41,376 nucleotides of DNA from a virus (Duplodnaviria; Caudoviricetes): positions 1 through 41,376 of IMG/VR virus record IMGVR_UViG_3300012890_000079; one strand, 5' to 3'. The translations under genes and the position numbers were made by a program. How positions within the stretch are numbered: the stretch's first letter is position 1; each line of letters begins with the position of its first letter. This document shows, one piece after another, positions 1 through 26,484 of the stretch. The notes below the pieces were generated by a model. That model had not been told where the DNA came from, ran no database searches, and saw only the letters and a list, made by a program, of their open reading frames with translations.

Positions 1-420
1 CTATTTCCAATTAATAATAAGCAAGTAGCAGGCAGCTCCTACACTAAGCCCCCACACCACCGCCCGCACCCGCTCGGCGGGCCAGCCCAGCCGCGCCGCC
101 ACCCATTGCAGGGCGCGGTCGCTGGCCGCCGTGCGCCCGACGGCGAAAGGGCGGTCGCCGGCGGCCAGGTTCAGCACGGGGTCGAAGAGCAGCAGGCGGG
201 CTAGTCCCGCTATGATGCCGTGAGTTATGACATAATGCGGGGCCAGACATAGCACAACTACCAACGGCAGGAAGTAGAGCAGCGTCAGAAGCCAGTGCAG
301 CGCGAAGGCCTGGCGCTTCGCCTCGGCCCCCGGTGGCGTGCGTCGGATGGCGCTCATCAACCAACCTTGTCCCCAAGCCATTAACAGTACAGCCACAGGC
401 CAGTATAGATAAGTTATCAT
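1..420 (-). CDS. Multi-TM membrane protein of the lysis region; first 22 codons supplied by HNH cassette 1
   Basis: 139 aa with several hydrophobic segments; ATGA overlap with the HNH stop. Confidence 0.8.
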
Positions 421-989
421 AGCAATGCTTTTCGAGCTTTAGCGGCAGCTTTAGTTGCCTTGCGGCACGTTTTGCAGATTCTGCCAGATTTGACCAGGTA
501 TGTATTTTCAGGCGTGTACTCGTGGCCTTTGGCGCAGTGTGTCCATTCGTCGCGGCCGTTTCGATGGCGCCCCTTAGCCATTTTGTCGGCCACGTTATCA
601 GCATTGGTGCCTTGGAAAAGGTGGGCGGGGTTAACACATTTTGGGTTGTCGCATTGATGACAAACCTGTAGCGCCTCATCGATGCCACCATTTGCCCATT
701 CATAAGAAAGCCGATGCGCCTTCATGTTTTCATTGGCAAGGAGGAAGCAGCCGTAGCCCCACTCATTAACTCCGGCTGTCCACTCCCAGCACGCACCAGC
801 CGGGCCTAGGCCCAGCGTTTTGTCAACCTTCTCCCAGAATCGTTCCTGCACCATTTTCTTTGGCAACGGCCCTCGGCTACGTCGTAGATTATGACAGATG
901 CGGCAATTGCGTTTGCCGCCCTGCACCATTGTATTCACGGCCGTGAATTCGTGGCCATGAATACAATGCGTTTTGAGTGCGTTCTTCAT
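417..989 (-). CDS. Free-standing HNH homing endonuclease with Cys/His zinc-finger-like modules at both ends
   Basis: RFWEKVDK...CWEW...GYG...AHRLSY...[15 protein letters not shown]...N motif; THCxxGHE(F/Y)TxxNT...CxxC twice; start taken at MKNAL. Confidence 0.9.
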
Positions 990-999
990 TGCTTGGCGA

Positions 1000-1341
1000 C
1001 TATTTGCGCACGAGACGAGCAAGAAAATCTACTTCGTAAGGCTTGCCAAAGACCGGCGTAGTGAGGTAGCTATCGCCTAGATTGCGCTCGATGCCTTTGC
1101 CAAATGAGCCACCGTCCAACGCCTTGCTGTTACCCTGCCAGGATACCGAGTAGGTGAAGCAGCTATTGGTATTGCGCGAATAGCGGAAGATAAATTGCTT
1201 CCCCTGCACCCGAGCCCCGCCATCGGCATCACACTTGCCTTTTAGGATGGTTTTTACCTTGGTTAGGTCAGTGGTGCCGAAGGTGGCTTTCAGGTCAGCT
1301 TTGATGGCGGCTTGTAGTTGGGCGGTGGTGCAGGTTGTCAT
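1000..1341 (-). CDS. Hypothetical protein (cassette cargo)
   Basis: 113-aa ORF with a TATATTTG promoter element upstream. Confidence 0.75.
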
Positions 1342-1374
1342 GGCGATGTGATTTTGTTTGTGATTTTAACGTCA

Positions 1375-1382
1375 CAAATATA
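1375..1382 (-). promoter_or_regulatory. Bacteroidota -7 promoter element for the 113-aa ORF/HNH
   Basis: Minus-strand TATATTTG matches TAnnTTTG in an AT-rich intergenic region. Confidence 0.65.
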
Positions 1383-1460
1383 ATACAGGTCTCGCCTTTA
1401 TCAAGTATTTTTAATGTGATTTAAAAATAATTTTTAATCACAATGTAAATGGGTCTGGCA

Positions 1461-1468
1461 TACCTTTG
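1461..1468 (+). promoter_or_regulatory. Bacteroidota -7 promoter element for the small regulator
   Basis: TACCTTTG followed by ATG at 1473. Confidence 0.7.
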
Positions 1469-1472
1469 TGCC

Positions 1473-1649
1473 ATGACAGAACCTATTAAGAGAGGCAAGG
1501 GGCGGCCTGCCGTTGCTGAGGCCAACAAGAAGCGAAACCGCGCCATCTCCCTCACAGATGCTGAATATGAGCGACTGGTGCAGCTTGCTGTGGAGGCGGG
1601 CGAACCTGGTCCTAGCTCTTTTCTAGTTAAGAAGCTCAAGCTCTCTTAG
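1473..1649 (+). CDS. Small DNA-binding protein (GRP motif, ribbon-helix-helix-like)
   Basis: KRGKGRP...RAISLTDAEYERL; divergent from the cargo ORF. Confidence 0.7.
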   Translation: MTEPIKRGKGRPAVAEANKKRNRAISLTDAEYERLVQLAVEAGEPGPSSFLVKKLKLS

Positions 1650-1715
1650 CATGAGCAGGCCCTGGGCCCAGGCCATCAGCAGCACGGCGGCCGGCCAGTA
1701 GAGGGTGGCCAGCAC
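1623..1715 (-). pseudogene. Stranded original N-terminus of the 1..420 gene
   Basis: GTG start overlaps the upstream TAG; encodes (V)LATLYWPAAVLLMAWAQGLLM then unrelated LRELELLN-stop. Confidence 0.8.
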
Positions 1716-1867
1716 TAGGCTTGTGGCTTTTTACGGCCAGCGGCCCAGATGAGCAGGCAGGCCAGCGAAATGACACCGTACACTACCACGGCCCATGGCG
1801 CGACGAAACGGTAAATGGGGTACGACATGCCGACCCAGACGAGAAATGCAACTACGAGGTACTTCAT
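1715..1867 (-). CDS. Small 2-TM membrane protein (holin-like candidate)
   Basis: 50 aa MKYLVVAFLVWVG...GRKKPQA, two hydrophobic segments and a basic tail. Confidence 0.65.
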   Translation of the reverse strand: MKYLVVAFLVWVGMSYPIYRFVAPWAVVVYGVISLACLLIWAAGRKKPQA

Positions 1868-1880
1868 GGCAGAAAAGATT

Positions 1881-2345
1881 TTAATTGTGAAAAATGAAAA
1901 CTGATAAGAGCAGCCCCACCACCACGCCGGCGGCCCCCGCTTTGTAGGTGCGGCCGTCGAGCAGCCAGGGCGGGCGCGGCGGGCTAGCCAGCACCACCCT
2001 GGCAGCGGCCCGCATGCGGTCGGCGTCGGCTTCGGCCGTGGTACGGGCCGCCTGGCAGCGCCTGAACTCGGCATCGAGCGCGGCTAGCTCCTGTTTGGCC
2101 AGCGCGGCCTGGTGGCGCAGGTCAGCCTGCACCGCATCGCCGGCGGGCACTAGCTCCAGCGCCCGGCGCCCGGCCTGGTAGGAAGCCGAGTCGAGGCCGA
2201 TGAGGCGCTCGCGCACCACGTCGCCGGGCAGCAACTGCACCGCGATGGGCACGGGCTGAAGCGGCTTAATGGCTTGGGCGGTAGCGGGGCGGCACAGCAG
2301 GCAGCTGAGGCAGAGCAGCAGGGAACAGAGCGCGGAGCGAGTCAT
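1881..2345 (-). CDS. Signal peptide, coiled coil and C-terminal TM protein (spanin-like candidate)
   Basis: MTRSALCSLLLCLSCLLC...; Ala-rich helix; C-terminal GVVVGLLLSVFIF; overlaps the upstream gene. Confidence 0.65.
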   Translation of the reverse strand: MTRSALCSLLLCLSCLLCRPATAQAIKPLQPVPIAVQLLPGDVVRERLIGLDSASYQAGRRALELVPAGDAVQADLRHQAALAKQELAALDAEFRRCQAARTTAEADADRMRAAARVVLASPPRPPWLLDGRTYKAGAAGVVVGLLLSVFIFHN

Positions 2346-2625
2346 AGCGTTGTTGGTTGAGGCGGCCGGCCCGCACGGCTTCCCGGTGCTGGCCGGCCAA
2401 ACTGAAAAAGGTGCTATCAAAGTGGTGCTGGTGGCGAGGCTCGGCCGTGACCCGGGCGGCGGCGGCTTGCTCGCTGGCCTGCACGGCCTTGGCGGCCCGG
2501 CGGTGGGCTAGCCAGGTGCTGGCGTAGTCGCTGGCCTGCGTGAGCAGCAGCACGGCGAAAATGATGGCCAGCGCGAAGGCTAGCCAGCGCCACTTGCTGG
2601 TGAGAAAGGAGGCGAACAGATTCAT
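2266..2625 (-). CDS. N-terminally anchored membrane protein (i-spanin-like candidate)
   Basis: TM WLAFALAIIFAVLLL followed by an Ala-rich helical region. Confidence 0.65.
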   Translation of the reverse strand: MNLFASFLTSKWRWLAFALAIIFAVLLLTQASDYASTWLAHRRAAKAVQASEQAAAARVTAEPRHQHHFDSTFFSLAGQHREAVRAGRLNQQRYDSLRALFPAALPQLPAVPPRYRPSH

Positions 2626-2765
2626 TTATGAGAGAATCTTTTTGGTGGGCGGGGAGGGCTGGCTAAGCGTTCTAGCTCTTGATTCTTAGCTTGAAGCAGC
2701 GTAGAGAGGTGAAACGCGAGCAGGCCCAGCAGCGCGAAGGCTAATAGTGTATATGCGAGCAGCAT
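2622..2765 (-). CDS. Small single-TM protein, 47 aa (not in the ORF track)
   Basis: MLLAYTLLAFALLGLLAFHLSTLLQAKNQELERLASPPRPPKRFSHK; fills the gap, ATGA overlap with the next gene. Confidence 0.55.
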   Translation of the reverse strand: MLLAYTLLAFALLGLLAFHLSTLLQAKNQELERLASPPRPPKRFSHK

Positions 2766-2766
2766 A

Positions 2767-3357
2767 TCAGTAATTCCAGTTGCTGAGCGCATCAATGGCG
2801 CCGATGGGGTACAAGCTGCGCTTCAGGCCGGCCGCCGTGCCGGTGCCCTCATTGCCAGCCCACGTCCATACCGAGCGGGGCGCGCGGCCGGCGCGCACCG
2901 GCCGGCCCAACTCAGCCACGGCCGCCACGTGGTGAATGCCGCGGCCGTAGTCGAAGCCAGCCTTCAGCGCCACGGCTATGCTGTCGATGGAGCCCCGGCC
3001 GGTTTTGCGGTCCCACAGCGTGCGGGCGGCGTCTGGCCCTTTGAGTGGAAACCACGCGGCCGCCGCGCCCTGCATGCCATTGCGCGGAATCGGCAGCCCG
3101 CAGCTGCGGTTGGCCGCGGCCTGGGTGAAGCCGCACCACTCCGGCCGCTGGGCGGGCACCCCGCCGCCGGCCTTGATAATGGCATCGACGAGCGGGCCCC
3201 GGTTCTTGGCGTTGGTTTCACGGGCGGCCTGGTGCTGCTCCAGATATTTGAGGGTGCAGGCGCCGGCTTGGGCCTGACGGGTGCGCGGTGTGGGCTGGGC
3301 TTGTGCCAGGTGACATAGCATAGCTAGCACCTGACATAGTATAAGTAGCTTCCTCAT
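2767..3357 (-). CDS. CHAP-like peptidoglycan hydrolase (endolysin) with signal peptide
   Basis: NRGP...EWCGF...AAAWF...HHVA...GNEG motifs; hydrophobic N-terminus ending AQA. Confidence 0.75.
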   Translation of the reverse strand: MRKLLILCQVLAMLCHLAQAQPTPRTRQAQAGACTLKYLEQHQAARETNAKNRGPLVDAIIKAGGGVPAQRPEWCGFTQAAANRSCGLPIPRNGMQGAAAAWFPLKGPDAARTLWDRKTGRGSIDSIAVALKAGFDYGRGIHHVAAVAELGRPVRAGRAPRSVWTWAGNEGTGTAAGLKRSLYPIGAIDALSNWNY

Positions 3358-3770
3358 ACCACAAGTGCCGCAAACACCGCCGCGCCCACGGCCCGAATGA
3401 CAATGACGAGTTGCAGGCGGCCGTACACGGCGAAGCGCTGCTCATCGGTTAGCGCCAGAAACTCGCGGCTGTAGCGCGTCTTGGCCCAGCGCGTGGGCGC
3501 CGGGTGGGTAAGGTGCTGCACCGTCCAGGTCAGCAGCACGAGCAGCAGGTACATGCCGGCGAAGGCAATAAACTTGCTGGCCACCGTAGCCGAGGGCACC
3601 CAGCCACTGGCCTGCTGGCCGGCGGCGATTTCGGCGCTGCTGGCGGCCGGGCCGGCGGCAGGCACGACGTGGTAGAACTTAGCGATGAGTCCGGGCGCGT
3701 AGGCCGCGCCGGCGAGCATGGCCAGGCCGAGGGCGGCGAACAGGAAAAAGGGAGTGAGCTTGCGCAGCAT
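3354..3770 (-). CDS. Membrane protein, holin candidate
   Basis: Three hydrophobic segments, directly upstream of the endolysin. Confidence 0.6.
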   Translation of the reverse strand: MLRKLTPFFLFAALGLAMLAGAAYAPGLIAKFYHVVPAAGPAASSAEIAAGQQASGWVPSATVASKFIAFAGMYLLLVLLTWTVQHLTHPAPTRWAKTRYSREFLALTDEQRFAVYGRLQLVIVIRAVGAAVFAALVV

Positions 3771-3797
3771 ACAGAAAAAAGGGAAAGGGTGAAAAAC

Positions 3798-4154
3798 TTA
3801 CTTGCTCTGCCGCTCCAGCAGGCGGTCGAGCTTGTTGCTGATATTGTTGTAGCCCTCCACGACGTGGCGCAACTCGGCCTTGACGCCGGCCATGTCCTCG
3901 CGCATGCGGCCTACTTCGCCTAGCTGATGCTCGATGGCCTGGCAGCGCTGGTGCAGAGTATCGGCGAGTTTCTCCACCGACTGCTGAAAGCCAGCCAAGC
4001 GGGTTTCGTGGTTGGCGTCGCTGACTTCGAGCTTGTGCAGGCGCGCCTCCACGGCGGCGCGGTCGGCGCGGCTGGGCACGAAGAAGATGTTGTAAGCCGC
4101 CATGCAGGTGGCCAGCGAGAGCGAGAGCAGGGCGATGAGTTGGGGCGTGAGCAC
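3798..4154 (-). CDS. TM-anchored coiled-coil protein (lysis region)
   Basis: N-terminal TM, heptad region, ends KLDRLLERQSK. Confidence 0.7.
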   Translation of the reverse strand: MLTPQLIALLSLSLATCMAAYNIFFVPSRADRAAVEARLHKLEVSDANHETRLAGFQQSVEKLADTLHQRCQAIEHQLGEVGRMREDMAGVKAELRHVVEGYNNISNKLDRLLERQSK

Positions 4155-4173
4155 GGTGAAAAGGCGCTATAAA

Positions 4174-4824
4174 TCAGGAGATAGCCGGATAGCTGGCCAG
4201 CAGGTAGCTTTCGGTGCGGGTGCGGTCCACGTCGGAGAGGTCGGTGAGGTACACGTAGCAGGCGCTGATGAGGCCCTGCCAGTCGTAGGTGGAGCTGCTG
4301 GGCTCACCGCCGAGCATGAAGTCGTCCGACCACGGCCGATTACCCAGCTCCCCACTCGACTCGATGGCGGCCAGCTGGCCGTTGAGGTAGAACACCACGC
4401 CGCCGTGGGCGAACTTGATGGTGAGCAGCAGGGTGCGGCCATTGTCGAGCACCGTTTTATCGACCACATTGACAAAGCCGGGGTTGTAGGTGTTGGCCGT
4501 CACTCCGCCGTTGTACATGTAGTTCTTGCCCGTGTAGCCCGCCCAGGTGCGGGTGCCGTCGCCGGCCGTGATGATGGAGCACATCATGCGCAGGTCCTCG
4601 ATGCTCGGCACCTTGCTTACCACTACGAACACCGTGGCCACCGAGGCCGTGGAGAGGCCCGGCAGGGTGTAGAGCTGCTTGGCGCTGGCCAGCGGCGTCT
4701 CGCGCGCCAGGGTGTAGCCCGGCGTGGGGGCTAGCCCGTAGGCGCTGTAGCTGGGGCTGGCGCCCAGCAGCACGCCGCCGCTCGTGAGCAGGTTGGCGCC
4801 CGCGCGTCGTAGGAGTAAGCTCAT
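4174..4824 (-). CDS. LamG/concanavalin-A-like domain virion protein
   Basis: VFYLNGQL...FMLGG...WQGLISACYVYLTDLSDVDR..ESYL pattern. Confidence 0.65.
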   Translation of the reverse strand: MSLLLRRAGANLLTSGGVLLGASPSYSAYGLAPTPGYTLARETPLASAKQLYTLPGLSTASVATVFVVVSKVPSIEDLRMMCSIITAGDGTRTWAGYTGKNYMYNGGVTANTYNPGFVNVVDKTVLDNGRTLLLTIKFAHGGVVFYLNGQLAAIESSGELGNRPWSDDFMLGGEPSSSTYDWQGLISACYVYLTDLSDVDRTRTESYLLASYPAIS

Positions 4825-4826
4825 GG

Positions 4827-6416
4827 CTAGCCTTTGGGGTAGCGGCACCACACCAAGCCGCCGGCCGCGCCGCGCTCGAATTGGTAGCCATAGTTGGCGG
4901 TTGTAAAGCGCTGGCTGGGCAGGCTGCCGTCGGGCTGTGCGCCCTGTAGCTCGCCGCCGCCGAAGGTGCCCCCGGCCACCGCGTCGCGCACGGCCTGCGG
5001 CACGTTGTAGACATCGACCACGGGCGGCGACACATCGCCCGCCGCATCGGGCCCGACGTTGAACACGCTCTTGACCGTGCCCGCTCCGCCGCCCCCGGCC
5101 TTGTGCTCCACGAGCGTGATGCCGGGGCTCACGTAGCCGTAATCGTAGGGCTCAAACAGGTGCACCGTGCCCGTGCCCAGCAGGCTCACGTAGGAGCCCC
5201 GCAGGGCAACGGCGCCCCCCGCCAGTTCGAGCGGCACCGAGCACTGGCCATCAAACAGCGGGAGCAGGCCGGGCGCGGTGTTGGTGTTGCCGGTGGCCAG
5301 CAGCTTGAGCTTGCTGCCCCGCGTGCCGGGCACCGGGAAAATAAAGAAGTTCTTGAACAGCAGCGAGCCCAGGTCGCTGCCCGGCAAGCTCAGCACCACG
5401 TTGTCGCCCAGCTCCAGGGTGGCGCCGGCGCCATCGACGTAGCTGGCCCAGCCGGGGTTTTGGGGGTCGTTGCTGGCGTTCAGCGTCACCGTGGCCACGT
5501 TGAAGCGCATGAACGTCTTGGGGCGCGTGTCAGCCAGGGCCTCGCCCAGCGTCGCAAAGCCGGCCACGTCGCCGCTTTCGAGGTAGGCCATCGCCGGGCT
5601 GGCCTGCACGCCCAGCGTGGCCAGTTGCAGCGCGTGCTGCTGCTGCACGGTGTAGCTGGCCACGGGCGTCGTGGTGCGGGCCACTATGTCCACGGTCACC
5701 ACCGCGAGCTTGCCATCGGCCGTGCGCAGGATACCGTTCGGGCTGAGCGTGTTGAGGTCCAGCGCCACCACGTACACAGTGCTGGCACTACTGGCGCCGT
5801 TCCAAAGGCCCGTAATGTCGTAGCGCACGCCAGGCGATAGCGCCTCCTCTTGGCCTATAATGCTTTGGCGTATACCCGGTAATTCGGCGGCAACAGGCGT
5901 GTCAAGCTTGGTGCCCAGGAAGGCGTTGATTTGCGCGTCGGTGTAGCCGCCGCCGGCGCCGCCAACCACCTTCACGAACTTGCTCGGGTTGCGGGCGCCG
6001 CTGAAATTGCCATCGACGTAGGCTAGCCCAGCCGGCGTGGGACTCGGGTCGTACACGCACTCCAAATCCTGCTGGCGAAAGTCCTCGCTGTCATCTTCCC
6101 GGTAGAACTCAATGCGGGCCCGCGTAAGCGCGCAGCAGGTGGCGTAGTCGATGTCCGTCTCAAAGCAGGCGCCGCCGGCCGGGTCGGCATCGCGGTCTAC
6201 GGCCCGGTAGAAACGAAACTCCTTCAGCAGGCTCTTGGCCGAGTTGGCGCTTTTGAGGCCCAGGAACTCGGTGAGCTGTTCGGCTGTGAGCTTCTTATTG
6301 ACGTAGGCCCCCACCACGGGCCCCGCCAGCACCTCGACCTCAAACAGCCCGCCCGGTAATTCAGTGGCTGGCGAGAGGACGTTCAGTAAGTCAGAGATGT
6401 ATTTGCCTTTAGCCAT
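4827..6416 (-). CDS. Putative tail fibre/receptor-binding protein
   Basis: 529 aa after the tail protein; Gly linkers and GTVKSVFNVGPDAAGDV fibre-like motif. Confidence 0.65.
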   Translation of the reverse strand: MAKGKYISDLLNVLSPATELPGGLFEVEVLAGPVVGAYVNKKLTAEQLTEFLGLKSANSAKSLLKEFRFYRAVDRDADPAGGACFETDIDYATCCALTRARIEFYREDDSEDFRQQDLECVYDPSPTPAGLAYVDGNFSGARNPSKFVKVVGGAGGGYTDAQINAFLGTKLDTPVAAELPGIRQSIIGQEEALSPGVRYDITGLWNGASSASTVYVVALDLNTLSPNGILRTADGKLAVVTVDIVARTTTPVASYTVQQQHALQLATLGVQASPAMAYLESGDVAGFATLGEALADTRPKTFMRFNVATVTLNASNDPQNPGWASYVDGAGATLELGDNVVLSLPGSDLGSLLFKNFFIFPVPGTRGSKLKLLATGNTNTAPGLLPLFDGQCSVPLELAGGAVALRGSYVSLLGTGTVHLFEPYDYGYVSPGITLVEHKAGGGGAGTVKSVFNVGPDAAGDVSPPVVDVYNVPQAVRDAVAGGTFGGGELQGAQPDGSLPSQRFTTANYGYQFERGAAGGLVWCRYPKG

Positions 6417-6420
6417 GCCC

Positions 6421-6476
6421 CGAAGTTCCGGCCGGCCCTTAGCCAGCCGGGAACGTGGGCGGGGAAAAGCGGGGAA
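6421..6476 (-). promoter_or_regulatory. Putative late promoter, copy 1
   Basis: TTCCCCGCTTTTCCCCGCCC-N27-GGAACTTCG; same layout as 20082-20137. Confidence 0.65.
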
Positions 6477-6481
6477 ACGGA

Positions 6482-9400
6482 CTAGTGGCGCACCCGCACG
6501 TAGCCGTCGTGGGTCATGCGCACGTAGGGCGTGAACTTGCCCGGGGCGTACTCATACACCTCGTGGGTAATGCGCACGCCGTCGGGCAGCTCGTCGAGCG
6601 GGTCGGGCGCGTCGGCGCCGGGGCCGACCTCCACAAGGCTGACTTCGGTTTGGGCTAGCCGCAGGTTCCAGCTGGTACTGGCGACTCCGAAGCGCCGGCC
6701 GCGCACGTCGTACGGCGTATCGACGCTATCGAGCAGCCGCGGGCCAGTGTGGGCGTGGTGACTGATGATACCAGTGAGCAGGCGGCTGGGGCCTTCGCGC
6801 AGGGCTAGGGCGTCGTACACGCTGTTCTCAAAAAGCGGGGCGGGCCGCAGGTCAATGGCGCGGGCCCACGCCGTGCTGGGGGTGCCATCGGCCAGGGCCA
6901 CGGCCCGGCTGAAGGCGAAGCGGTTTCCCTCGAACAGCCCAGCCTCGATGGGAATGTCGGGGTGGTAGACGTCGAGCACTTCGGTGGACCGCACGGTGCC
7001 GGCGCGGCCCTCGGCGCGGAAATTATCCTGCCCGTCCCAGGTGGTTTGGCGCGGGCGCAGCTCGATGCCGATGCTCGTGACCAAGGCCTGCGCATTGGGG
7101 GCTGCGAAGTTGAGCGGCTCCCAATTGAGGTCGGGAATGTCGGCCCTGTCGGTAAGCAGCCAGTTGGTATCGCTGCCGCTGGCTGGCAGTGGTGGCACGG
7201 GGTTGAACATATCCCGCAGGGCCTTGTAAAACAGCGGGCCACTCGTGACGTAGTTGCCCGCCGTGAAATTGGCCTTTTCTGCCCATGGCCGGGTGCCGAG
7301 CGGCAGCCCGCCGGGCTCGACGACGGGCGCGAACAGGGCGCGCTTGGCCTGGAAGTACACACGCTGGCCCGCCGGGGCATCCTGGTACACCACGTCGCCC
7401 GCGGCATAGGAGCTCAGCAATCCGTACACCTTGCTCTCAACGTAGTCGCCCGTGCCCACCCGGGTGAAGGCCAGCGGCGCCGCGGGCAGCACGTGCAGTA
7501 CGGTGAGCCGGGCCCCGGTGGGCACAGCCGGTAGCGGCAGGGTAATGACCGTAGGCTTATCGGTGGCTTTCTTGGCCAGCGGCAAGGTGAACACCAAAGG
7601 GGCGAGCAGCCGCTGGCCATCGATGGCCACGGCCACGGTAAGAGTGGCGCTCACCGCCGCGTCGGCCGTGGCCGCCCCGGTGGGCAGGTAGCGAGTGGGC
7701 AGCCAGCGGGCGGTTACGGTCAGAAAAGCCGGGCACGACTCGGGTAGGGGCACGAGCGGCAGGGCCGGGCTCACGAGGTAGCGCGTGTCGCCAGCCTGCG
7801 CCAGCGGCCACTGGGTGCTGTAGTCAGTGCTTTTCTCGCCGCCCTCGCGCAGCACGAGCGGAAAGCCTTCATCTGTACCAGGCTGCCAGCCGGCGATGGG
7901 GCGCAGGCGGGCCCCGTTTTCCAGCCAGGCGTACTTGTCGGAAAATACCTCGCCGGCCGCGAATGCGTTTTTTAGCCAACCGGCATCGGTAGCGCCCACG
8001 AGCGATTTCCAGCCCGGCCGCACCTGCTGCTGCTGCGCGGCCTTGAGCCAGCCCCACACCGTACCGGGCTTGCTGAGCGGGGCGATGAGGCCGCTGGGCG
8101 CCACGGCCAGCAGCTTGCCCGCGGGCGTGCCGGCGGGGCGGTAGGCCCGGCCGGGGGCATCGGCCAGCACCTCCAAAAAGCTGCGCACCTGCCACGAGCC
8201 TTCGCGCTGGCAGAGGGTGCCGCCCATGGTCTGGGCCAGGGCCTGCACCACGGTATGCAGGTCGCGGGGCTCATCTTTCTCGCTGTCGTAGTAGCCGTTG
8301 CGCTCGGTGGTGGCCGCCAGCTCGGGCGCGTCGTCGTCGCTCATCTCGGTGCTGCGGCGGTTGACCAGGCAGTGCACGGGCAAACTCACGTCGCAGCGGC
8401 TGAGCGCGTGCAGCAGCGTGTTGAGCAGCGGTCGCCGGCCTTGCAGGCGCTGAAACTCGTGGCTGAGAAAGTCCACGTCCTTCAGGCCGGCTAGCCCGTC
8501 GGTGGCCGTGAGCGAAATGGGCAGCAGGCCACTGAGCAGCGGCGCGGTGTAGATGTCGGGCAGCACGTAGCCGCGAAACTGCAAGCGGCCGGCGCTGTAC
8601 ACGTCGCAGCGGCAGGCGCGGTCATCGTTCACCACGACTTCCTCCAGTGTGCCGGGGAGCACGCGCAGGCTCAGCTCGCAGCTGGTGCCCACGATGGCCG
8701 GCACGTCGCCCTGGCCCCCAAGGCTGCCGTTGAGCCCGTCGGTTTGCAGCACCACCGGCGCGCTGCCGTTGCCCTTGATTTCCTCCACCGGGCCCGCGTA
8801 GTCGCGCAGCCACAGCTCCAGGCGCTGCGGCACGCCGCGCGGGTCGGCAAAGTCGCGCTGCCAGCGCAGGCCGTAGCGCAGCTTCAGGGTGAAGGGCACG
8901 CGCAGCACGGCGCCGGCCGCGTCGGTGGCCACCACCTCGTGGTCGCCGGCGGCCAGCCCGTCGAAGCTACCGGTGTCGTTGGTGCTGGCGCCCAGAGTGA
9001 AGCTCACCGGCAGAGCCGTGGCGTTGACCTCCAGCAGCACCCCGCCGTTTTGCTCGGCGGCACTGTCGGGATGGAATACGATGAGGTTGTCGAGCGTCAG
9101 CACCGAGCCGCCGAGCGTATCGTCCTTGAAGTAGACGTCCGGCCCGCCGTAGGTGCTGACGGTGCGAAACGTCACGCCGTCGGGCAGCAGGTAGCCATCA
9201 ATAAAGTCGCCGGCCGGGCGCTCGTAGCGACTATCGAAGGGATTGTTGTCCTCGTAATTGTAGGTTTCGACAGCCTTGGTAGTAAAATTCCAGATGGACT
9301 TGGTGCCGCGCCCGCCGGTGCTGCCGTCGCCGAAGTGCACATCCTGGAGCAACTCGCCGAAGGGCATGCCGTCGGGCGCGCCCAGCTTTACCGGGATGGT

Positions 9401-9937: not shown

Positions 9938-9964
9938 TGGCGTATTCGTATCTACTTTGGTGCT

Positions 9965-14228: not shown

Positions 14229-14242
14229 TGGACATGAAACAC

Positions 14243-15075: not shown

Positions 15076-15088
15076 TATTCTTTACAAT

Positions 15089-16440: not shown

Positions 16441-16446
16441 GGCGGG

Positions 16447-16677
16447 CTAGCGGGTTTCGTCGGTTTTGGTCACGGCCTGGCAATAGCCATCGGCTACTAG
16501 CTTGGTCGCCTTGTCCTTGGGCAGCTCGCCCGTTTCGCCAGCGTGGTACGCGTAGGCCTGGTGCGACTTAATAAACTTGACCTGCGTACCAACAGCGGCT
16601 TCGCTAGCGGCACCCTTATCGGCCGCGGCTTTTTCTGCGGCAGCTTTTTCTGCGGCAGCTTTTTCTTGAGCAGTCAT
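16447..16677 (-). CDS. Small head-associated protein with EKAAA repeats
   Basis: 76 aa after the capsid gene; tandem 15-nt repeats. Confidence 0.75.
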   Translation of the reverse strand: MTAQEKAAAEKAAAEKAAADKGAASEAAVGTQVKFIKSHQAYAYHAGETGELPKDKATKLVADGYCQAVTKTDETR

Positions 16678-16746
16678 AAGAAGTAGAAATGAGTGGGTAA
16701 AACCATGCGCCCGGCCAGCGCCAGCCGGCCGGGCTACTCGGGTGGC

Positions 16747-18069: not shown

Positions 18070-18111
18070 GGGGTAGGTAGCAGAAAAAAAAGGTGAGAAA
18101 CGGAGATGAAA

Positions 18112-18753
18112 TCAGGCGGCGAGCGCCAGCAGTTGCAGCTGGCGGCGGCGGCTGGCCAGCGTGGGGCCAGGGGCCTGGCTGCGCTGCTGCTGGTAGTCGG
18201 TGAGGCTGCGCTGGGCGGCCTCGGTGTCGGCGTAGGCCGGGTCGGTGACGGGGCACACGTCCGAGACGCGGCTGATTTTGCCTACCGTGCGCACGTAGAT
18301 GCCATCCTCGTCGTAGTCCCAGCTTGCGCCGTTGGGGGCCACGCGAAACGCGAACGAGGAGCCCACCACGTCGCCGCGCTCAATCTTGCGCATCACGCGC
18401 ACGTGGTCGGGGTCGAGCGGGTCGTAGGTGATGCGGTAGGAAAGCCCGCCGTCGGCGTCGATGGTGAGCTCCAGCGTGCCGGCGCCGGTGGTGCCGAGCA
18501 CGTAGTTGCGGTCATGGTTGAAAAGGCCTTTCACATCGCTCAAATCGGCGTCTTTCAGCGCGTCTTTGTCAATGATTTCCACGAAACCGCCCAGGTTTTT
18601 GCTGCGCACGCCCGTCACGATGGCCTTACCCACGAAGTATTCGGGGGTTTTGGGCTCACCTTCGGCGGCCGCACGGTACTCCAGGCCGACTTTTTGCCCC
18701 TCCGCAAAGCGGATTTCAGGGCCGTTTTGGGAGTTATTTAGGGGCGTTTTCAT
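18112..18753 (-). CDS. Prohead protease, HK97 family
   Basis: LFNHD...RGDVVGSSFAF...VTDPAYADT. Confidence 0.95.
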   Translation of the reverse strand: MKTPLNNSQNGPEIRFAEGQKVGLEYRAAAEGEPKTPEYFVGKAIVTGVRSKNLGGFVEIIDKDALKDADLSDVKGLFNHDRNYVLGTTGAGTLELTIDADGGLSYRITYDPLDPDHVRVMRKIERGDVVGSSFAFRVAPNGASWDYDEDGIYVRTVGKISRVSDVCPVTDPAYADTEAAQRSLTDYQQQRSQAPGPTLASRRRQLQLLALAA

Positions 18754-20062: not shown

Positions 20063-20081
20063 GGGGTCGGATTAGCTTCAT

Positions 20082-20137
20082 CAAAGCTCCGATGCACCCT
20101 AGCCGGGGGCCCTATGCGGGCGGGGAAAAGCGGGGAA
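20082..20137 (-). promoter_or_regulatory. Putative late promoter, copy 2
   Basis: TTCCCCGCTTTTCCCCGCCC-N27-GGAGCTTTG upstream of the portal gene. Confidence 0.65.
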
Positions 20138-20140
20138 TGG

Positions 20141-21958
20141 CTAGTCCCAGCTAAATAAATCGTGGTCTTGGTAAATGTATTCGCTGACGACTTTGCCCGT
20201 CATGTAGCCGCCCAGGGCATTGACCAGCGCTGCCATACCATCAATCTTCTCCTTACTCTTGCCCTTGTCTAGCTTGATATTGCCCGCCGGGTCGCGGGCC
20301 AGCACCACGTTGCCACACATCCACGCCAGTACTGGGTTGCCGTAGTGGTGCACCTTCGCGTCGGCTACCAGGTTTTCTAGTTCTACCGTAGGGGCAGAGA
20401 GTGAAGCGAAGCCCTGCCGCAGTTCCTGCATAGGTACACCCTCTTCAATGAGCTGGCTTACTAGCATAGAAGCATTCCAAGGGTCGTAATCAATCATTTG
20501 CACTTGATAGGTGGCGCAGGTGGCCTCAATCTCGCTTTTGATGAAGGCGTAGTCCGTCACGTTACCGGGTGTGGCAATCAAATAGCCCTCATCTACCCAC
20601 TGACGGTAAGGCACAGCGTCCTTTTTGGTGCGCTCGTCTACCTTATCCTCAGGCACCCAGAACCAGCATCTCACGTCAAATTGCCCACCATCCTTGGGGA
20701 AAATCAGCACAAACGACGAGATGTCACGTGTTTTGGCCAAATCCAGCCCGCCCCAGGCCTTGCGGCCCGCCAGCTCACTCGGCGGGGTACCCTGCGCGCC
20801 CTGCGCCCATAGCTCGGCCGGCAGCCAAACCTCGGCCGAGTCCGTCCACAAGTTGAGGTGCTTCGTTTTGAAGGGCACCTGTTGGGAGGGTAGGCGCACG
20901 GCAGCTTTGTACTGCTCCCGCAAATACTCCAGGCCCAGCGACACACCCAGATTGGGGTTGGCCTTCTGCCAGGTAGTTTCATCCTGCCAGTCGTCGCCCT
21001 CATCGAGCGAGTAGATAAGCACGAAATAAGAATCATCGTGGTGCTGGCCTTCCAGCAGGCCGGCCAGTGATTTGCGCAGCTGGGCGCAGGGGCCCAGCCG
21101 ATTGAAGCCGGCCGTTGTGATGATGCTCAGCAGGGGCTGCGAGCGAGCGCCGGTGGCTGATTTAAGTACCGAGTACAGCCCATCGTCAGGGTGGGCGTGG
21201 TACTCGTCGATGTAGATGCCGTGCGGGTTAAGGCCGTCCTCGGTTTTCGAGTCGGCCGCCATCGGCTTCATCGTGCTCAGAGTGCTGGCCACAGAAATGG
21301 CATTGCGCTGCACGGCCACCTTTTTGAGTAAGGCCGTAGATTTCTTGGTCATGTTGCGCGCGTCGTCGAACACAATGCGAGCCTGCTCTTTTTTAGTGGC
21401 CGCGCAATAGATTTCGGCACCCGCCTCACCATCAAGCACCAGTAACTCCAAGCACACGCCCGAGCCGACCGTGCTTTTGCCATTTTTGCGAGCTACCTCC
21501 AGGTAAGACTCCCGGAAGCGCCGGGTACCATCGGCCCGCTTCCAGCCGAAAAGACTGGCAATAAAGAATTGCTGCCAGGGCTCTAGCGTAAGGGGCTGGC
21601 CAGCCCAGCGCCCTTTGTTGTGGGTGAGCAAGCTGAAGAACTTGACGCGTATCATAGCAGCCTTTTCGTCGAAACGCAGGCCTCGCTCGTGGCCCGTTTC
21701 GAGGTCGCGCAGGTGACGCTCAGCGGCTAGCCAGGTGTAGCGCCCCACCCGTACGGGGAGACTACGCAGTTGCGCGCGCAGCGGCTCCAGCTTGCGCTCC
21801 AGAGCGGCTATTTGGGCAGTGTGGTCTTTCTCCTTCTCCTTTTTGAGATTAGCGATACGCAGCACCATCGGGCGCAGCTTCTCCTGCACGGCGGCCTCGG
21901 CGCGGCCGGCGGTCGCCACGTCGTGGGCGTATTGGTGCCAGGGGGCGAGGGTGCTCAT
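20141..21958 (-). CDS. terL: Terminase large subunit
   Basis: LEPWQ, ARKNGKS, IDEYH, GLDLA, KIDG motifs; start MSTLAPW. Confidence 0.95.
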   Translation of the reverse strand: MSTLAPWHQYAHDVATAGRAEAAVQEKLRPMVLRIANLKKEKEKDHTAQIAALERKLEPLRAQLRSLPVRVGRYTWLAAERHLRDLETGHERGLRFDEKAAMIRVKFFSLLTHNKGRWAGQPLTLEPWQQFFIASLFGWKRADGTRRFRESYLEVARKNGKSTVGSGVCLELLVLDGEAGAEIYCAATKKEQARIVFDDARNMTKKSTALLKKVAVQRNAISVASTLSTMKPMAADSKTEDGLNPHGIYIDEYHAHPDDGLYSVLKSATGARSQPLLSIITTAGFNRLGPCAQLRKSLAGLLEGQHHDDSYFVLIYSLDEGDDWQDETTWQKANPNLGVSLGLEYLREQYKAAVRLPSQQVPFKTKHLNLWTDSAEVWLPAELWAQGAQGTPPSELAGRKAWGGLDLAKTRDISSFVLIFPKDGGQFDVRCWFWVPEDKVDERTKKDAVPYRQWVDEGYLIATPGNVTDYAFIKSEIEATCATYQVQMIDYDPWNASMLVSQLIEEGVPMQELRQGFASLSAPTVELENLVADAKVHHYGNPVLAWMCGNVVLARDPAGNIKLDKGKSKEKIDGMAALVNALGGYMTGKVVSEYIYQDHDLFSWD

Positions 21959-22170
21959 TCGGGCGTAGTAAACTTTTCCAGATGGTCGGTCATGGCTTGC
22001 GCGGCCTCCTCTGAGCCAGGCTTGCGCAGGGCTAGACGAATCACATCGCGCATGCTGGCGCGCTTTTCGGGCGACCATTCAGCGAGGGCGCAGGCGTCAC
22101 AGTAACCACGCTCGCGCACAGCTTTGCGTGGAAAGTGCTGCTGTTGCTGGCATTTAGAGCAAGTAAACAC
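21955..22170 (-). CDS. Small CxxC...CxxC zinc-binding protein
   Basis: CSKC...CDAC; ATGA coupling to terL. Confidence 0.6.
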   Translation of the reverse strand: MFTCSKCQQQQHFPRKAVRERGYCDACALAEWSPEKRASMRDVIRLALRKPGSEEAAQAMTDHLEKFTTPE

Positions 22171-22178
22171 GGGCTGAT

Positions 22179-22550
22179 TTATTTGGTAAAACTTAGATAG
22201 TGGGTAAGGGTGCCGTCTGCCGTCTCTTCATAGTCATCGTAATTGACTATGCCGTGCAGTGGGCAATAAATGTCCCCTGTGTCGTACACCACCCAGTGGC
22301 TCCCCATTTGGAAGGGATAGGTAAGCTTGAGAATACACAGCGCGGGTAAGGCCGCTTGCGTTTTGAAGCGTAGCAGCCGCTTGGCTGGCTTGTAATGGTA
22401 GTACTTCAGCGCCCAGCGTAGCACCTTAGCCGACGTGGCCCAGTCGTGGCAGAATACCGTGAGGCAGGAATTGAGCGACACGCCGACTATCATGGCCACG
22501 CAGCACTGGCCGCAGACAGTAGAGTCCTCGGGTTGGAGAATCAGCTTCAT
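22179..22550 (-). CDS. C39-like (papain-fold) cysteine peptidase
   Basis: LQPEDSTVCGQCCVAM and HWVVYD motifs; ATGA coupling to terS. Confidence 0.65.
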   Translation of the reverse strand: MKLILQPEDSTVCGQCCVAMIVGVSLNSCLTVFCHDWATSAKVLRWALKYYHYKPAKRLLRFKTQAALPALCILKLTYPFQMGSHWVVYDTGDIYCPLHGIVNYDDYEETADGTLTHYLSFTK

Positions 22551-23023
22551 CGGGCCTCGTCGATAAGTGCTGCCAGCGGGTCTTTTTCTTCCGTTGCACC
22601 CAGCGCCGACACCTTGGATCGGCTGGCTGGCGTCAAGCCAAACTCGGTAAGCATGGACTTGGCCCGACGCCACAAGTCGGCTTCCATAGCGACTTCGGGC
22701 CGTGCACGGAACACCTTGCCCCCGTCGCTCAATAGTTCGTAGACACGGCCTCTTTTGGCAATAGTGACCCGCACGCTTACCCACTGTGCGAGCACGTCAC
22801 AGAGCAGCGTCATGGCGGCCGTGTCACCGTACGAAACAATCTTCATTTGCAGTAATAAACCACCGATTTCCTGCCAGTATTCTTTGGCCATAGGTGTCAG
22901 CCAATCAGGCGGTAAGCCTAGTGCAACGTCGGGTATAGGCTCCTGCGAATTAGTGCGACTAGGTTGCAGCGTACCGCGGAGCTTTTTGAGGTGGGTTGGT
23001 TTGGGAGGGCGGCCGGCTGCCAT
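22547..23023 (-). CDS. terS: Terminase small subunit (P27 family)
   Basis: GRPPKPTHLKKLRG...PPDWL...EFGLTPASR. Confidence 0.95.
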   Translation of the reverse strand: MAAGRPPKPTHLKKLRGTLQPSRTNSQEPIPDVALGLPPDWLTPMAKEYWQEIGGLLLQMKIVSYGDTAAMTLLCDVLAQWVSVRVTIAKRGRVYELLSDGGKVFRARPEVAMEADLWRRAKSMLTEFGLTPASRSKVSALGATEEKDPLAALIDEAR

Positions 23024-23034
23024 ATCAGAATTTT

Positions 23035-23125
23035 CTAAGCGAATTATGCACGCGTGTGTTTGTGACTCTGGACTACGGTCTAGTGATGACGATGCCTGAG
23101 GATTTTGACCCCCTACCCCCTATGG
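23035..23125. other. Probable cos/packaging region
   Basis: Between the packaging HNH and terS; minus strand GGGGGTAGGGGTCAAAATCC...AGACCG...CACGCGTG, resembling HK97-like cos regions. Confidence 0.5.
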
Positions 23126-23319
23126 GGCATTTGCGGGACTTCTGCGGGCACCAATACCTCCACCTGGCGCACGACCATTAGGATGGGGTCGCCAGTCTTC
23201 TGGCAGGTGCCCCAGTGGGTAGCACAAGCCGGCGGGTAAGCGAAGGGCACGAACTCAACGGCTAGGTGGTCGCCACCACAGCGGGCGCAGTGAGTGACTG
23301 AGGTAGTGAATCGCTTCAT
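23113..23319 (-). CDS. Small Cys/His-rich hypothetical protein
   Basis: CARCGGDH...C; ATGA coupling. Confidence 0.55.
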   Translation of the reverse strand: MKRFTTSVTHCARCGGDHLAVEFVPFAYPPACATHWGTCQKTGDPILMVVRQVEVLVPAEVPQMPHRG

Positions 23320-23636
23320 TGTTGATTAGGCTGAATGGTGCGCTCGGTGGCACTCTTGGCCTGGTGGCAGGGGCGGCACAGGCTCTGGTAGTTGCTGCTG
23401 TCCCAGAAGTCGCCACCAAGGCGCACGGGCGTGATGTGGTCGCACACCGTGGCGGCCGTGGTACGCCCTGCCTTGGTGCACTCAGCACAGAGCGGGGCTC
23501 GGGCTAGCTGGGCAGCGCGGGCGGCCTGCCAGCGGGCGGTGCCATACTCGGCAGAGCGGGCGGCGTGCTGCAGGTATGTGCGCTTCTGAGGCGCGGGCTG
23601 CCAAGGCCTACGCTTGCTTGGGGGCAAAGAAGGCAT
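23316..23636 (-). CDS. Packaging-associated HNH endonuclease (HK97 gp74-like)
   Basis: PLCAEC...CDHITP...NYQSLCRPCHQAKS, upstream of terS. Confidence 0.9.
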   Translation of the reverse strand: MPSLPPSKRRPWQPAPQKRTYLQHAARSAEYGTARWQAARAAQLARAPLCAECTKAGRTTAATVCDHITPVRLGGDFWDSSNYQSLCRPCHQAKSATERTIQPNQQ

Positions 23637-24015
23637 CGGGCAGCATCGGAAAGAAGCCAGGGAATGCGGGGTCGCCGGGCACGAGGCAGAGCGTAAGCGA
23701 CTCGGCCGCGCCCACTGTGGCAGCGGGTAGCTCCACGTCATGCAGGCGGGGGCGGGTATCGGCGTACCACCGCACGCGGTTGGTAGCGGCGGGGCGCAGG
23801 TCGAAGTGCCAGTACGGGTGGCCGGCGCTGGGTGGTAGCAGGTCGGCTGGCTGGTTAGCGCGCAGGCCCAGCGCCCGGGCCAGGGCAGTGGAGAGGTACA
23901 CGCGGTAGGTGCCGGGCCGCTTGGTAGGGGCAATGCGCAGGCTGGGAAAGAGGCCACGCGGGGGCGGCACGTAGTCGGCTGGATTGTAGGTGGGCAGTAT
24001 CGTAGGTAGAGACAT
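23608..24015 (-). CDS. Hypothetical protein
   Basis: Start MSLPTILP; GC-rich phage-like codon usage. Confidence 0.65.
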   Translation of the reverse strand: MSLPTILPTYNPADYVPPPRGLFPSLRIAPTKRPGTYRVYLSTALARALGLRANQPADLLPPSAGHPYWHFDLRPAATNRVRWYADTRPRLHDVELPAATVGAAESLTLCLVPGDPAFPGFFPMLPDAFFAPKQA

Positions 24016-24071
24016 TTTTGCAGAGGTAGCGCGTGTGCGTAAGATACGAAATGAACTGATAACCTGAGCGA

Positions 24072-24350
24072 TTAGTGCGGACTTGTGATGATGGCAATGG
24101 CCTGGTCCACGGTGTAGACGATGTGGTACTTGGAGCCCCGCCAGCTGTCTCGAAACTCGGCCTCGCCGGGGGTGAGCTTGTCCTTCTCGGTGGCTTTTAT
24201 CTCCATCAGGAAGGTGCGGCCGCGGTAGCCGACGAGCAGGTCGAATGCGTTTTTCAGGACGTGGCAATGCAAAACCGAAGCGCCGATACCGCGCAATGCT
24301 CGCACGATATCGGCCTGGTTTGCATCCGCTCGGGATGCCATTCGGAGCAT
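24072..24350 (-). CDS. VRR-NUC-like PD-(D/E)XK nuclease; N-terminus supplied by HNH cassette 2
   Basis: DANQ...FDLLVGYRG...MEIK...KLTPGE. Confidence 0.85.
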   Translation of the reverse strand: MLRMASRADANQADIVRALRGIGASVLHCHVLKNAFDLLVGYRGRTFLMEIKATEKDKLTPGEAEFRDSWRGSKYHIVYTVDQAIAIITSPH

Positions 24351-24592
24351 TATGACTTTGGTTTGTGCAGATATTGGCGCAGACTCGACAAAGGCAGCCT
24401 ACCACTGAATACTCTGCCGGTAGCTACATCTTCCAAAGTGTAGTGCGTAGCGTAGCCCACACCACAATGCTGTCGAACAGAAGCATGCACCTTAAAAAGT
24501 TTACCTGGTAAATAAGTTGGAGAGGTAGATTTTGGCTTGCCCTCAAGCAAGGCCCCGATTTTCATGTCGGTATATTCTAGTTTTCTTTTCAT
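24350..24592 (-). CDS. Hypothetical protein (cassette cargo)
   Basis: 80 aa, AT-rich, TAATG coupling to the nuclease. Confidence 0.65.
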   Translation of the reverse strand: MKRKLEYTDMKIGALLEGKPKSTSPTYLPGKLFKVHASVRQHCGVGYATHYTLEDVATGRVFSGRLPLSSLRQYLHKPKS

Positions 24593-24595
24593 GTC

Positions 24596-25015
24596 CTAAG
24601 CAGCGTGACGGGCGCGGTATTCTCGCCCACGGTTTTGGTGACAGGTTTTGCACTGGCGGCTGTTGCCGTAGCGGTAGATGTTCTCCTCGGTGAGCGGGTG
24701 ACCATGCTTGCACTCGGTTTTCACCGTGTTGCGGTGCCGACCCGCCTCAGCCATGTCGGCCATGTTATCAGCCTGCGTGCCGAGCACGAGGTGGGCGGGG
24801 TTGACGCATGCCCGGTTGTGGCAGGTGTGGCGCACCACTTGGCCGTCGGGAATGGGGCCGTGGGCAAGCTTGTAGGCCACACGGTGAGCACCATCCGCCT
24901 TGCCTTCATGCCAGGCGCGGCCATAACCCTCTGTGCTTATTTGACGAGTCCAGTTCCAGCAGGTATCGGTCTTTTCTGCCTGCGCCCAAAAGGGGTTTTG
25001 AATGTTGATTTCCAT
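24596..25015 (-). CDS. Free-standing HNH homing endonuclease
   Basis: FWAQAEK..CWNW...AHRVAY...[15 protein letters not shown]...CKHGH...CKTC. Confidence 0.9.
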   Translation of the reverse strand: MEINIQNPFWAQAEKTDTCWNWTRQISTEGYGRAWHEGKADGAHRVAYKLAHGPIPDGQVVRHTCHNRACVNPAHLVLGTQADNMADMAEAGRHRNTVKTECKHGHPLTEENIYRYGNSRQCKTCHQNRGREYRARHAA

Positions 25016-25042
25016 GCTATAATTTACGAATTAAAATGCAGA

Positions 25043-25162
25043 TTAACAAGTAATTATAAAACAGTTCTTGAGCTGGTGCAGGTGTAGGACGGTGGCGCCA
25101 ATAGCCCGCAACGCTTTCACGATTGCGGGCTGGTTGGCATCGACCTTGGCGGCGGTGCGCAT
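25043..25162 (-). pseudogene. Stranded original N-terminus of the VRR-NUC-like gene
   Basis: [35 protein letters not shown] then IITC-stop; TAATG coupling to the upstream gene. Confidence 0.85.
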
Positions 25163-25437
25163 TAGGTTCGTTGGCTGGCCAGATTCAGTATCTGAGGCAG
25201 CGCATCGGTGAGCGCATCCCGGAAGTCCTCATTGCCGCGCGCCGCGATAAGCAGCGCCTGCACTAGGTGGTCCGGCGTGCCGCAAATGCGGGCGCTGCTG
25301 TTGGGGGTATTGCGCGGGTCTACTGTGAGCACGAGCGCAGAGGGCATTAGGTGGTCAGCAACTGTATCCTCGTGGTCATCACACCACTCGCTCAATTCTT
25401 GGAAGGCTTCGTTCAGGGCTGCAATAGCTGGTATCAT
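25162..25437 (-). CDS. Hypothetical protein
   Basis: Start MIPAIAAL by ATGA overlap with the HNH stop. Confidence 0.65.
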
Positions 25438-25976
25438 TTGCTTGGGGTGGCCGTAGCCGTTGAGGGTGAAGAAATACACGAGCAGATGCCGCAAGTCCCC
25501 TCGCAGTAAGGGGTAGTGCTATCGCGGCGACGAGCGCGGAAAGCATGGGTGCCGGCCAGATTGCAGGTTTTACACACCCGATATGGAGCCCGGCCAGGCC
25601 TGTGTCGCAGGACGGTATTCTCAGGCGTGAACTCATGCCCGTGCTTGCAATGCGTTTGCTGCTGCTTGGCCGCCCGACCCTTCTGGGTCATATCCTCGGA
25701 GTTCTGTTTTGGAGTGCCCAGGAATAGGTGAGCGGGATTGACGCAAGCCCTGTTGTCGCACTTGTGGCAGACCAATAAGCCGGGTGAGATGGGGCCAATA
25801 TTCAGTTCATATGAAGCTCTGGGCGCTTTCAGCATCTTGCCATTTAGGTTGATGACGCCGTAGCCGTTGCTTACCAAGCTTTGAGTCCAGACCCAGCAGT
25901 CGCCAGCAGGCCCATGCCCATCTGCCTTATCTACTTTGGCCCAGAAACGAGCCTCAAACGTTGCGCTGTTATCCAT
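25434..25976 (-). CDS. Free-standing HNH homing endonuclease (cassette 3)
   Basis: RFWAKVDK...CWVW...[15 protein letters not shown]...[14 protein letters not shown]...CKTC. Confidence 0.9.
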
Positions 25977-25977
25977 T

Positions 25978-26484
25978 TTAGGCTTCTGATTGAGGTGATA
26001 ATGATTCGCACTGGCCGTTGCAGTAGGGCGCGGGCACTGGGCTGGCCGAGAGCGGAAACTGTGCCTCGGCCTCCGTGGGCACCTCCCACAGCGAGAGCTT
26101 GCCCTTGCAGGGGATGGGCGTGGCGAAGGGCTGCACGTGGCTCAGTGCCCACGCTACTCGCCCATTGGAGTAGTCGCCGCAGGCTAGCTCTACCTCACCG
26201 AGCACGAGGTTCCACGTCTCATCCATCTTGTGCATCTCATCGACTGAGCACATACCCAGGACGGCGCCGCGCGGGAGCGTGTCGAAGGTGAGATTGTGCT
26301 GGGCTAGGATGCTGGAAATGATGGGGTCGGTTTCGCACACCTCGCGGGCCCAGGCCGGCTTACCAGCGCTGGCGGCGATGGCCAGTGGCCCCCGATGCGT
26401 GGTACCCCACGAGCGGGTTTCGTACTCTTTGTAGCCCAGCATGATGAGCGTGGCCCATGGCTGGAGTAGGCTAATGGCTTTCAT
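25978..26484 (-). CDS. ASCH-domain protein
   Basis: [36 protein letters not shown]...KGKLSLW. Confidence 0.9.

Follow-up and report, generated by a model that had tools for sequence, protein, structure and literature searches.

Phage HNH endonuclease genes inserted inside coding sequences and flanked by diverged copies of gene ends: a probable splicing-free form of homing

The principle of replacing the terminus of an invaded gene has already been published for yeast and for fungal mitochondria. WHO elements, known from Torulaspora and Lachancea yeasts, insert at FBA1 (Coughlan et al. 2020, PMC7282813), where they replace that gene's 3' end, leave an orphan fragment that acts as a homology arm and encode a nuclease whose cleavage was shown to be allele-specific (PMC7282813); they have been classed, alongside introns and inteins, as a third category (Osborne et al. 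2026, 10.64898/2026.08.13.744650). In Glomus mitochondria, endonuclease-carrying mORF elements form gene hybrids of atp6, atp9, cox2 and nad3 (PMC3630166, which also cites an atp6 hybrid of Allomyces), and N-terminal duplications have been reported in Tremella, where the elements were treated as introns (PMC7315562). The T4-type Seg and Mob homing endonuclease genes of phages are intergenic and act on distant cut sites (PMC2988022), and one HNH insertion gives a lysin a new 3' end (PMC3706429). The nearest phage case that we found is MobA, whose insertion point lies within a gene and which brings, together with a new start, a diverged homologous stretch (HomR, 67-81% identity) over its nick site (10.1101/2022.08.31.505936). 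Here we describe three related HNH endonuclease genes, HNH-A, HNH-B and HNH-C, in a complete virus record of 41 kb (Caudoviricetes; IMG/VR record IMGVR_UViG_3300012890_000079, 41,376 nucleotides, hereafter the window), each of which is inserted in a phage gene.

A first-pass annotation made from the letters alone had proposed that these genes sit where a phage gene is cut and that the insert brings a recoded replacement head. This was borne out: the insertion points at the three sites (A, B and C) are single positions within coding sequence, not between genes, cognate empty alleles exist for all three, and at A and B the old head directly joins the body in the empty allele, while the filled allele has a diverged but complete replacement head fused to the old body (22 codons at A, about 35 at B). 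The anatomy, consisting of point insertion, empty alleles, a native orphan, a diverged attached copy and overlapping starts and stops, is real, recurrent and well supported. We consider it probable that such HNH inserts, located at single points near gene ends, spread by a splicing-free homing that swaps the gene terminus.

As in WHO elements, the nuclease gene has the full-length host gene on one side and a duplicated piece of that gene on the other (at sites A and B, at the related loci L111 and L117 and at others), the arrangement is probably non-splicing, and the complete gene has the element-borne terminus, with the orphan proposed as the second homology arm. The WHO nuclease is an intein-derived LAGLIDADG protein with a zinc finger, whereas the phage nuclease is an HNH protein; a WHO element replaces the 3' half of a single nuclear gene, which is essential, whereas the phage HNHs are found in many unrelated genes, where 5' heads and tails are both replaced and the exchanged stretch is no longer than 7-48 codons. 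Cleavage was shown for WHO and is predicted for the phage HNHs, whose carried terminus is diverged in sequence. As with mORF elements, an endonuclease open reading frame (ORF) brings a foreign gene terminus, the protein is conserved and the orphan DNA is closer to the relatives (in 4 of 4 comparisons at A and 30 of 35 at B), but mORFs reside in organelle genes and are mostly C-terminal. The phage inserts share with the T4-type free-standing genes that they are intron-free, and differ from Seg and Mob in lying inside coding sequence. MobA deletes the native stretch of which it brings a diverged copy and splits the protein into two needed parts, whereas here the native terminus stays as a dead stub and the protein remains in one piece. 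By this comparison, the inserts would work like a WHO or mORF element without being a member of either, and would constitute a phage HNH variant that includes a 5' mirror image. A stub combined with a spare terminus is not described in the accessible portions of PMC2988022, PMC10448857, PMC11855218, PMC12724721, PMC3706429 and PMC7344957, and a search of the full-text literature, whose scope left out most subscription papers, gave no description of this layout in phages.

Site A lies in a membrane-protein gene of the lysis region and contains the following features.
1-354, minus strand: body of the site A gene, with native codon usage
355-420, minus strand: new head, 22 codons, in frame with the body
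417-989, minus strand: HNH-A endonuclease gene, whose stop overlaps the start of the new head (ATGA)
1000-1341, minus strand: passenger ORF of unassigned function, with one homolog besides itself
1342-1472, no strand assigned: divergent AT-rich intergenic region with an imperfect inverted repeat and two promoter-like TANNTTTG words
1449-1649, plus strand: passenger ORF; the insert begins on the left with its stop codon
1650-1715, minus strand: old (orphaned) head, 22 codons, with native codon usage

The insert at site A (1.3 kb) thus comprises the plus-strand ORF, the divergent AT-rich spacer, the ORF at 1000-1341, HNH-A and the new head, and its GC content is 0.51, as compared with 0.66-0.67 in the flanks. 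The old head has a GTG start that overlaps the upstream stop, an arrangement also found in the empty allele L156. Its GC content at third codon positions (GC3) is 1.00, versus 0.45 for the new head and 0.87 for the first 23 codons of the body. Over the last 18 codons of the two heads, 6 are identical, 9 differ synonymously and 3 non-synonymously. When the 4 closest of 21 loci were compared codon by codon (L156, L002, L157 and L001), all four empty alleles were closer to the old head (0.76-0.85 nucleotide identity) than to the new one (0.48-0.65). A Trp and the last Met are common to the new head and the resident old head but missing from 3 of these 4 empty alleles, and 9 of the 11 degenerate codons shared by the two heads are spelled differently. 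Contigs spanning the insert sites were taken from runs X2 and X3, X1, a possible source of the window itself, not being counted as independent; one X3 contig joins position 351 to 1654 and so skips the insert.

The extra ORFs that the first-pass annotation had noticed inside the inserts (1000-1341, 1449-1649 and, at site B, 24350-24592) are indeed present, and have no Pfam or PHROG match. No homolog of the ORF at 1000-1341 was found in 274 family genomes; the small product of 1449-1649 we take to be possibly DNA-binding. The two TANNTTTG words, which we assume to represent a promoter consensus, are located at 1375-1382 (minus strand) and 1461-1468 (plus strand). They are only suggestive of promoters, as TANNTTTG is not enriched over the whole window (11 found, 10.8 expected). 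The plus-strand ORF is convergent, which suggests that the insert, in place of the lysis operon, may now supply the transcript of the repaired gene.

Site B interrupts a gene for a 92-residue resolvase-like nuclease.
24072-24242, minus strand: body of the site B gene, GC3 0.88
24243-24350, minus strand: new head, 36 codons, in frame with the body
24350-24592, minus strand: passenger ORF, 80 residues, whose stop overlaps the start of the new head (TAATG)
24596-25015, minus strand: HNH-B endonuclease gene, preceded by an AT-rich spacer (25016-25057)
25058-25162, minus strand: old head, 35 codons

The target gene matches the Holliday junction resolvase family PHROG 5702 weakly (E 0.0016). The insert (24243-25057, 815 bp) is made of the spacer, HNH-B, the 80-codon ORF and the new head. 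GC3 amounts to 0.76 in the old head and 0.59 in the new one; over 34 codons the two share 62% nucleotide identity, with 9 identical, 13 synonymous and 12 non-synonymous codons. The scores of the old and new heads against each other at A and B (77.5 and 61.9) exceeded the maximum of 252 cross-paired controls (40.6). Thirty-nine homologous loci, most of which are empty alleles, were available for comparison. Four were dropped (2 with an in-frame stop, 2 at a contig edge), and in 30 of the 35 kept (two pairs of duplicates and a mis-framed tie are among the 35) the head was closer to the old copy; the clear exceptions were L003, L008 and L126, and L004 was a near tie. Contigs of both runs cross the insertion point, joining 24243 to 25059 in X2 and 24245 to 25062 in X3 (78 letters on the short side). 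The old head and HNH-B also share one reading frame, interrupted by two TAA codons, possibly by chance.

Among 64 loci of this target gene, an HNH match was found in only two. In the first, L111 (G065; the same locus as L132), a different HNH has inserted independently in the site B gene; its insertion point lies about 8 codons earlier, and no passenger accompanies it. The second, L155 (G062), is a relic in which a zinc-finger remnant much like that of L111 is joined to a disrupted copy of the target gene.

Site C has a different geometry.
25434-25490, minus strand: old tail of native type, which HNH-C now has as its C-terminus (from comparison with empty alleles)
25434-25976, minus strand: HNH-C endonuclease gene, its end fused to 7 recoded codons and the native old tail
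25491-25511, minus strand: diverged copy PYCEGTC, with the residues of the empty allele L178
25978-26007, minus strand: short new tail and stop borne by the insert, 9 codons
26008-26028, minus strand: native copy PYCNGQC, near the end of the gene at 25978-26484

The interrupted gene matches PHROG 3193 and is presumably ASCH-like, as judged from its motif; no relatives were found in viral contigs. The first-pass annotation had read a seven-codon distal copy here. The pair PYCEGTC/PYCNGQC is there, but the seven-codon match by itself is at chance level, 70 of 200 shuffles reaching 5 of 7, and it is the empty alleles that establish the insertion at C. In four HNH-free loci (L003, L175, L176 and L178) the left flank continues directly into the right flank, and PYCEGTC has the same residues as the L178 sequence with four third-position changes. 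Two X2 contigs also skip 517 bases (25489-26007), though weakly, with 28 letters on the short side. By sequence, site C is a tail-side version, with a new short ending at the left edge and the old ending left on the HNH, and not a repair of the head. We also observed that a conserved module of 45-60 nucleotides, ending in ATPSK and a stop that overlaps the next ATG, closes several unrelated small ORFs in related phages (window 25434-25490 and L003, L005, L175, L176 and L178); it may serve these phages as a common linker for recombination when modules are shuffled.

Identity among the three HNHs is 42-49%; all match Pfam HNH_3 and PHROG 826 and keep the His and Asn of the catalytic motif. The best structural match of an AlphaFold model of HNH-C (pLDDT 85.9) was I-HmuI (PDB 1u3e; Z 7.2, rmsd 2.8, 79 residues aligned), followed by I-PpoI (1a73; Z 7.1). 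Both of these are intron-encoded, their match covers the nuclease domain and leaves the C-terminal zinc finger of the phage protein outside, and such middling Z values would indicate the fold only. A sequence search of the PDB gave no match at E 0.001 (I-PpoI appeared at E 0.05-0.09), and neither did Foldseek at the same threshold. HNH presence is patchy: none of the same family was found in 10 records with empty alleles, several of which are incomplete.

We then surveyed related HNH loci for flanking duplicated gene ends, as the first-pass annotation had suggested, and found them in excess of controls. Relatives came from viral contigs, metagenomes and a genus-level set of genomes (17 matches in 15 of 165); with the window sites they made up 314 loci, 285 after removal of near-duplicates and 247 with enough flank. 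Because six-frame self-BLAST of the window and plain BLOSUM alignment of the flanks were swamped by GC-rich off-frame matches, composition-adjusted ungapped scoring was used. A first pass with no rule on position gave 14 of 205 loci at a score of at least 35 (including site B and one internal repeat), while the controls gave 1 hit among 820 cross-pairs and 7 among 427 other ORFs, and the distal copies began at the HNH stop. A second pass used cut-offs chosen after the first one: with the start of the distal copy required within 60 nucleotides of the HNH stop and a score of at least 33, it yielded 14 of 244 non-window loci; none of the 988 cross-pairs passed, and 4 of the 526 other ORFs did, a control that contains spurious ORFs (Fisher p 6e-5 for HNH loci against other ORFs, about eight-fold enrichment in odds). 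At a score of 30 the counts were 15, 2 and 11, respectively. The survey misses short or cargo-separated copies such as those of sites A and C. Three of the 16 testable loci at genus level were positive, and an order-wide search had matches in 2 of 401 genomes, neither of them new. L110 and L124 also scored high, due to zinc-finger repeats inside the HNH, which were masked later.

Among the top 15 cases, as judged by eye from open frames, 8 were heads and 7 tails; "head replacement" is thus too narrow a description, as site C also indicates. From their translations, we take the targets to include an endolysin, an integrase, methylases and a lysozyme. Two tail-type loci are L117 (G051), with a 48-codon spare tail on an endolysin-like gene and the HNH on the opposite strand, and L120 (G157), with a 22-codon duplicate of the end of an integrase-like gene. 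The gene-attached copy had the lower GC3 in 14 of the 15 cases (p 0.001), and in L251 all 17 residues are identical with 8 synonymous changes. Some HNH frames are fused in frame to an orphaned head from which the start is borrowed (L042, L308) or to an orphaned tail (L027). Among the control ORFs, three with short protein-level flanking repeats (L278, about 3957-4263; L109, about 7551-7854; L242, about 2187-2553) are possibly other inserts with duplicated junctions.

According to the mechanism that we favour, the HNH would nick or cut the empty allele at or near the junction and the break would be repaired from the filled allele, the old head being one homology arm and the gene body the other; for WHO elements the same scheme has been proposed. 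The differently spelled head carried at A and B keeps the frame of the interrupted gene whole and would resist cutting. The homology arms would in this way be refreshed from recipients, and the interior (the HNH, the spare terminus and any passengers) would move as a unit and diverge.

Several observations weigh against this. No cassette was seen twice, the best relatives of HNH-B being 34-59% identical, so that repeated homing was not observed, and cleavage of the junctions by the HNHs is a prediction. About 94% of the tested relatives have no detectable duplication. The synonymous excess in the survey (126 versus 88 non-synonymous codons) is inflated, because the cases were found by protein similarity. 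L120 shows the opposite GC3 polarity, the new head of L042 does not have a standard in-frame start codon, and the old head of L111 is itself AT-shifted and ends about 8 codons earlier. At site B, new-type heads occur with no adjacent HNH in L003, L008 and L126; the "recoded" head may therefore be just a natural donor allele. In L003, the same upstream gene as in the window abuts directly on a head in which old- and new-type bases are mixed over the first 25 or so positions and new-type afterwards, a pattern that would fit loss of the HNH by recombination between two heads as well as a natural donor allele.

The first-pass annotation had gone further than the data in some respects. Its proposal that recoding destroys the cut site is a prediction, and its vehicle for cargo genes is not supported: in 1 of 274 genomes a homolog of the site B passenger occurs with no HNH next to it, the L111 insert is free of cargo and no cassette recurs. 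Nor is a distinct family of duplication-bearing HNHs supported: in a tree of low resolution, with 138 of its 244 branches open, they are scattered, requiring 16 changes for 18 rows versus a mean of 17.6 after shuffling, with 32 of 500 shuffles as low as 16, which does not support one clade.

This scatter is also what would be expected if each insert were a one-off scar of ordinary intronless homing, an explanation that we think unlikely but that deserves consideration. A recipient cut by an intergenic HNH located beside a resistant target allele would have been repaired by homology on one side and by illegitimate joining on the other, its own head being left as a stub; there would be no stable two-armed cassette, and the "recoding" would be donor divergence. 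One-sided illegitimate repair has been described for T4 (PMC2988022), the HNH-free new-type heads and the lack of a recurring cassette fit, and the passengers resemble donor context. Such repair usually carries donor sequence further, however, whereas in the alignments of A, B and C the left breakpoint, where the old copy ends, and the end of the diverged zone agree within about 0-6 nucleotides; because of this close coincidence, we favour repeated two-armed homing over a single one-sided accident. The scar also does not account well for the Trp and last Met that the new head of site A has in common with the resident head despite its different codons, nor for the consistent AT shift of the attached copy. 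It may, on the other hand, be the step from which the favoured mechanism originated.

Passive mosaicism, in which diverged phages recombine at gene boundaries and the HNH is a non-cutting passenger, appears very improbable. The region is highly mosaic around its shared tail module and some non-HNH ORFs are flanked by repeats too, but the enrichment around HNH genes, the start of the distal copy at the HNH stop, the presence of two different HNHs inside one gene and the intact catalytic motifs all argue against it. That the inserts are self-splicing introns with an incidental second head is hardly credible: although phage HNH genes inside genes often sit in spliced introns (PMC7344957, PMC3706429), the Rfam gathering scan of the window, which does not reach undescribed ribozymes, found no intron family and matched solely a tRNA, in agreement with the splicing-free arrangement proposed by the first-pass annotation, the HNH ORFs occupy most of inserts B and C and leave little space in which a ribozyme could fit, the gene downstream carries a start codon of its own, and splicing would leave a protein-conserved spare head unexplained.

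Elsewhere in the window, the minus strand encodes the terminase, portal, capsid, tail, DnaB and ParB proteins. Because a close relative of the site B gene was found in a Hymenobacter sp. genome, the host is probably Hymenobacter. An unrelated fourth HNH_3 protein with a degenerate motif is encoded at 27186-27869 (minus strand), and another HNH, probably an ordinary packaging nuclease, adjoins the small terminase (about 23316-23640, minus strand). The tRNA gene (26666-26749, minus strand), presumably of the tyrosine type from its loop sequence, has a TTA anticodon that would read the TAA stop codon, which ends 12 of the 33 main ORFs of the window; no tRNA was found in 37 related loci. The right end (38611-41376), where lower-GC ORFs accompany a resolvase gene and two paired repeats lie near 39340-39800, looks like an insertion or host flank and not like core phage.

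A broader proposal, which we put forward tentatively and regard as rather doubtful, is that, next to introns and inteins, phages have in terminus swapping a third general strategy of homing, which at least some 6% of the members of this HNH family would use. The entire spare terminus, and not the cut site alone, would be driven to diverge, because divergence would keep the two copies from excising the nuclease by recombination and would direct repair by way of the old stub, so that the nuclease is passed on. Each round would replace gene starts or ends, re-wire promoters and translational coupling and possibly carry passengers, and loss of the nuclease would leave immune HNH-free alleles such as L003. 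From the sharp junctions, candidate target sites can be predicted for many HNH nucleases that await characterisation, each coming with its own pair of presumed sensitive and resistant substrates, which makes the specificity of these enzymes directly testable. If the favoured mechanism holds, phages and yeasts would share a class of homing that needs neither RNA nor protein splicing, of which phages would additionally use the 5' mirror image of the yeast-type replacement, and it would be a source of intragenic mosaicism at the ends of endolysin, integrase, methylase and resolvase-like genes and of odd stubs in annotations.

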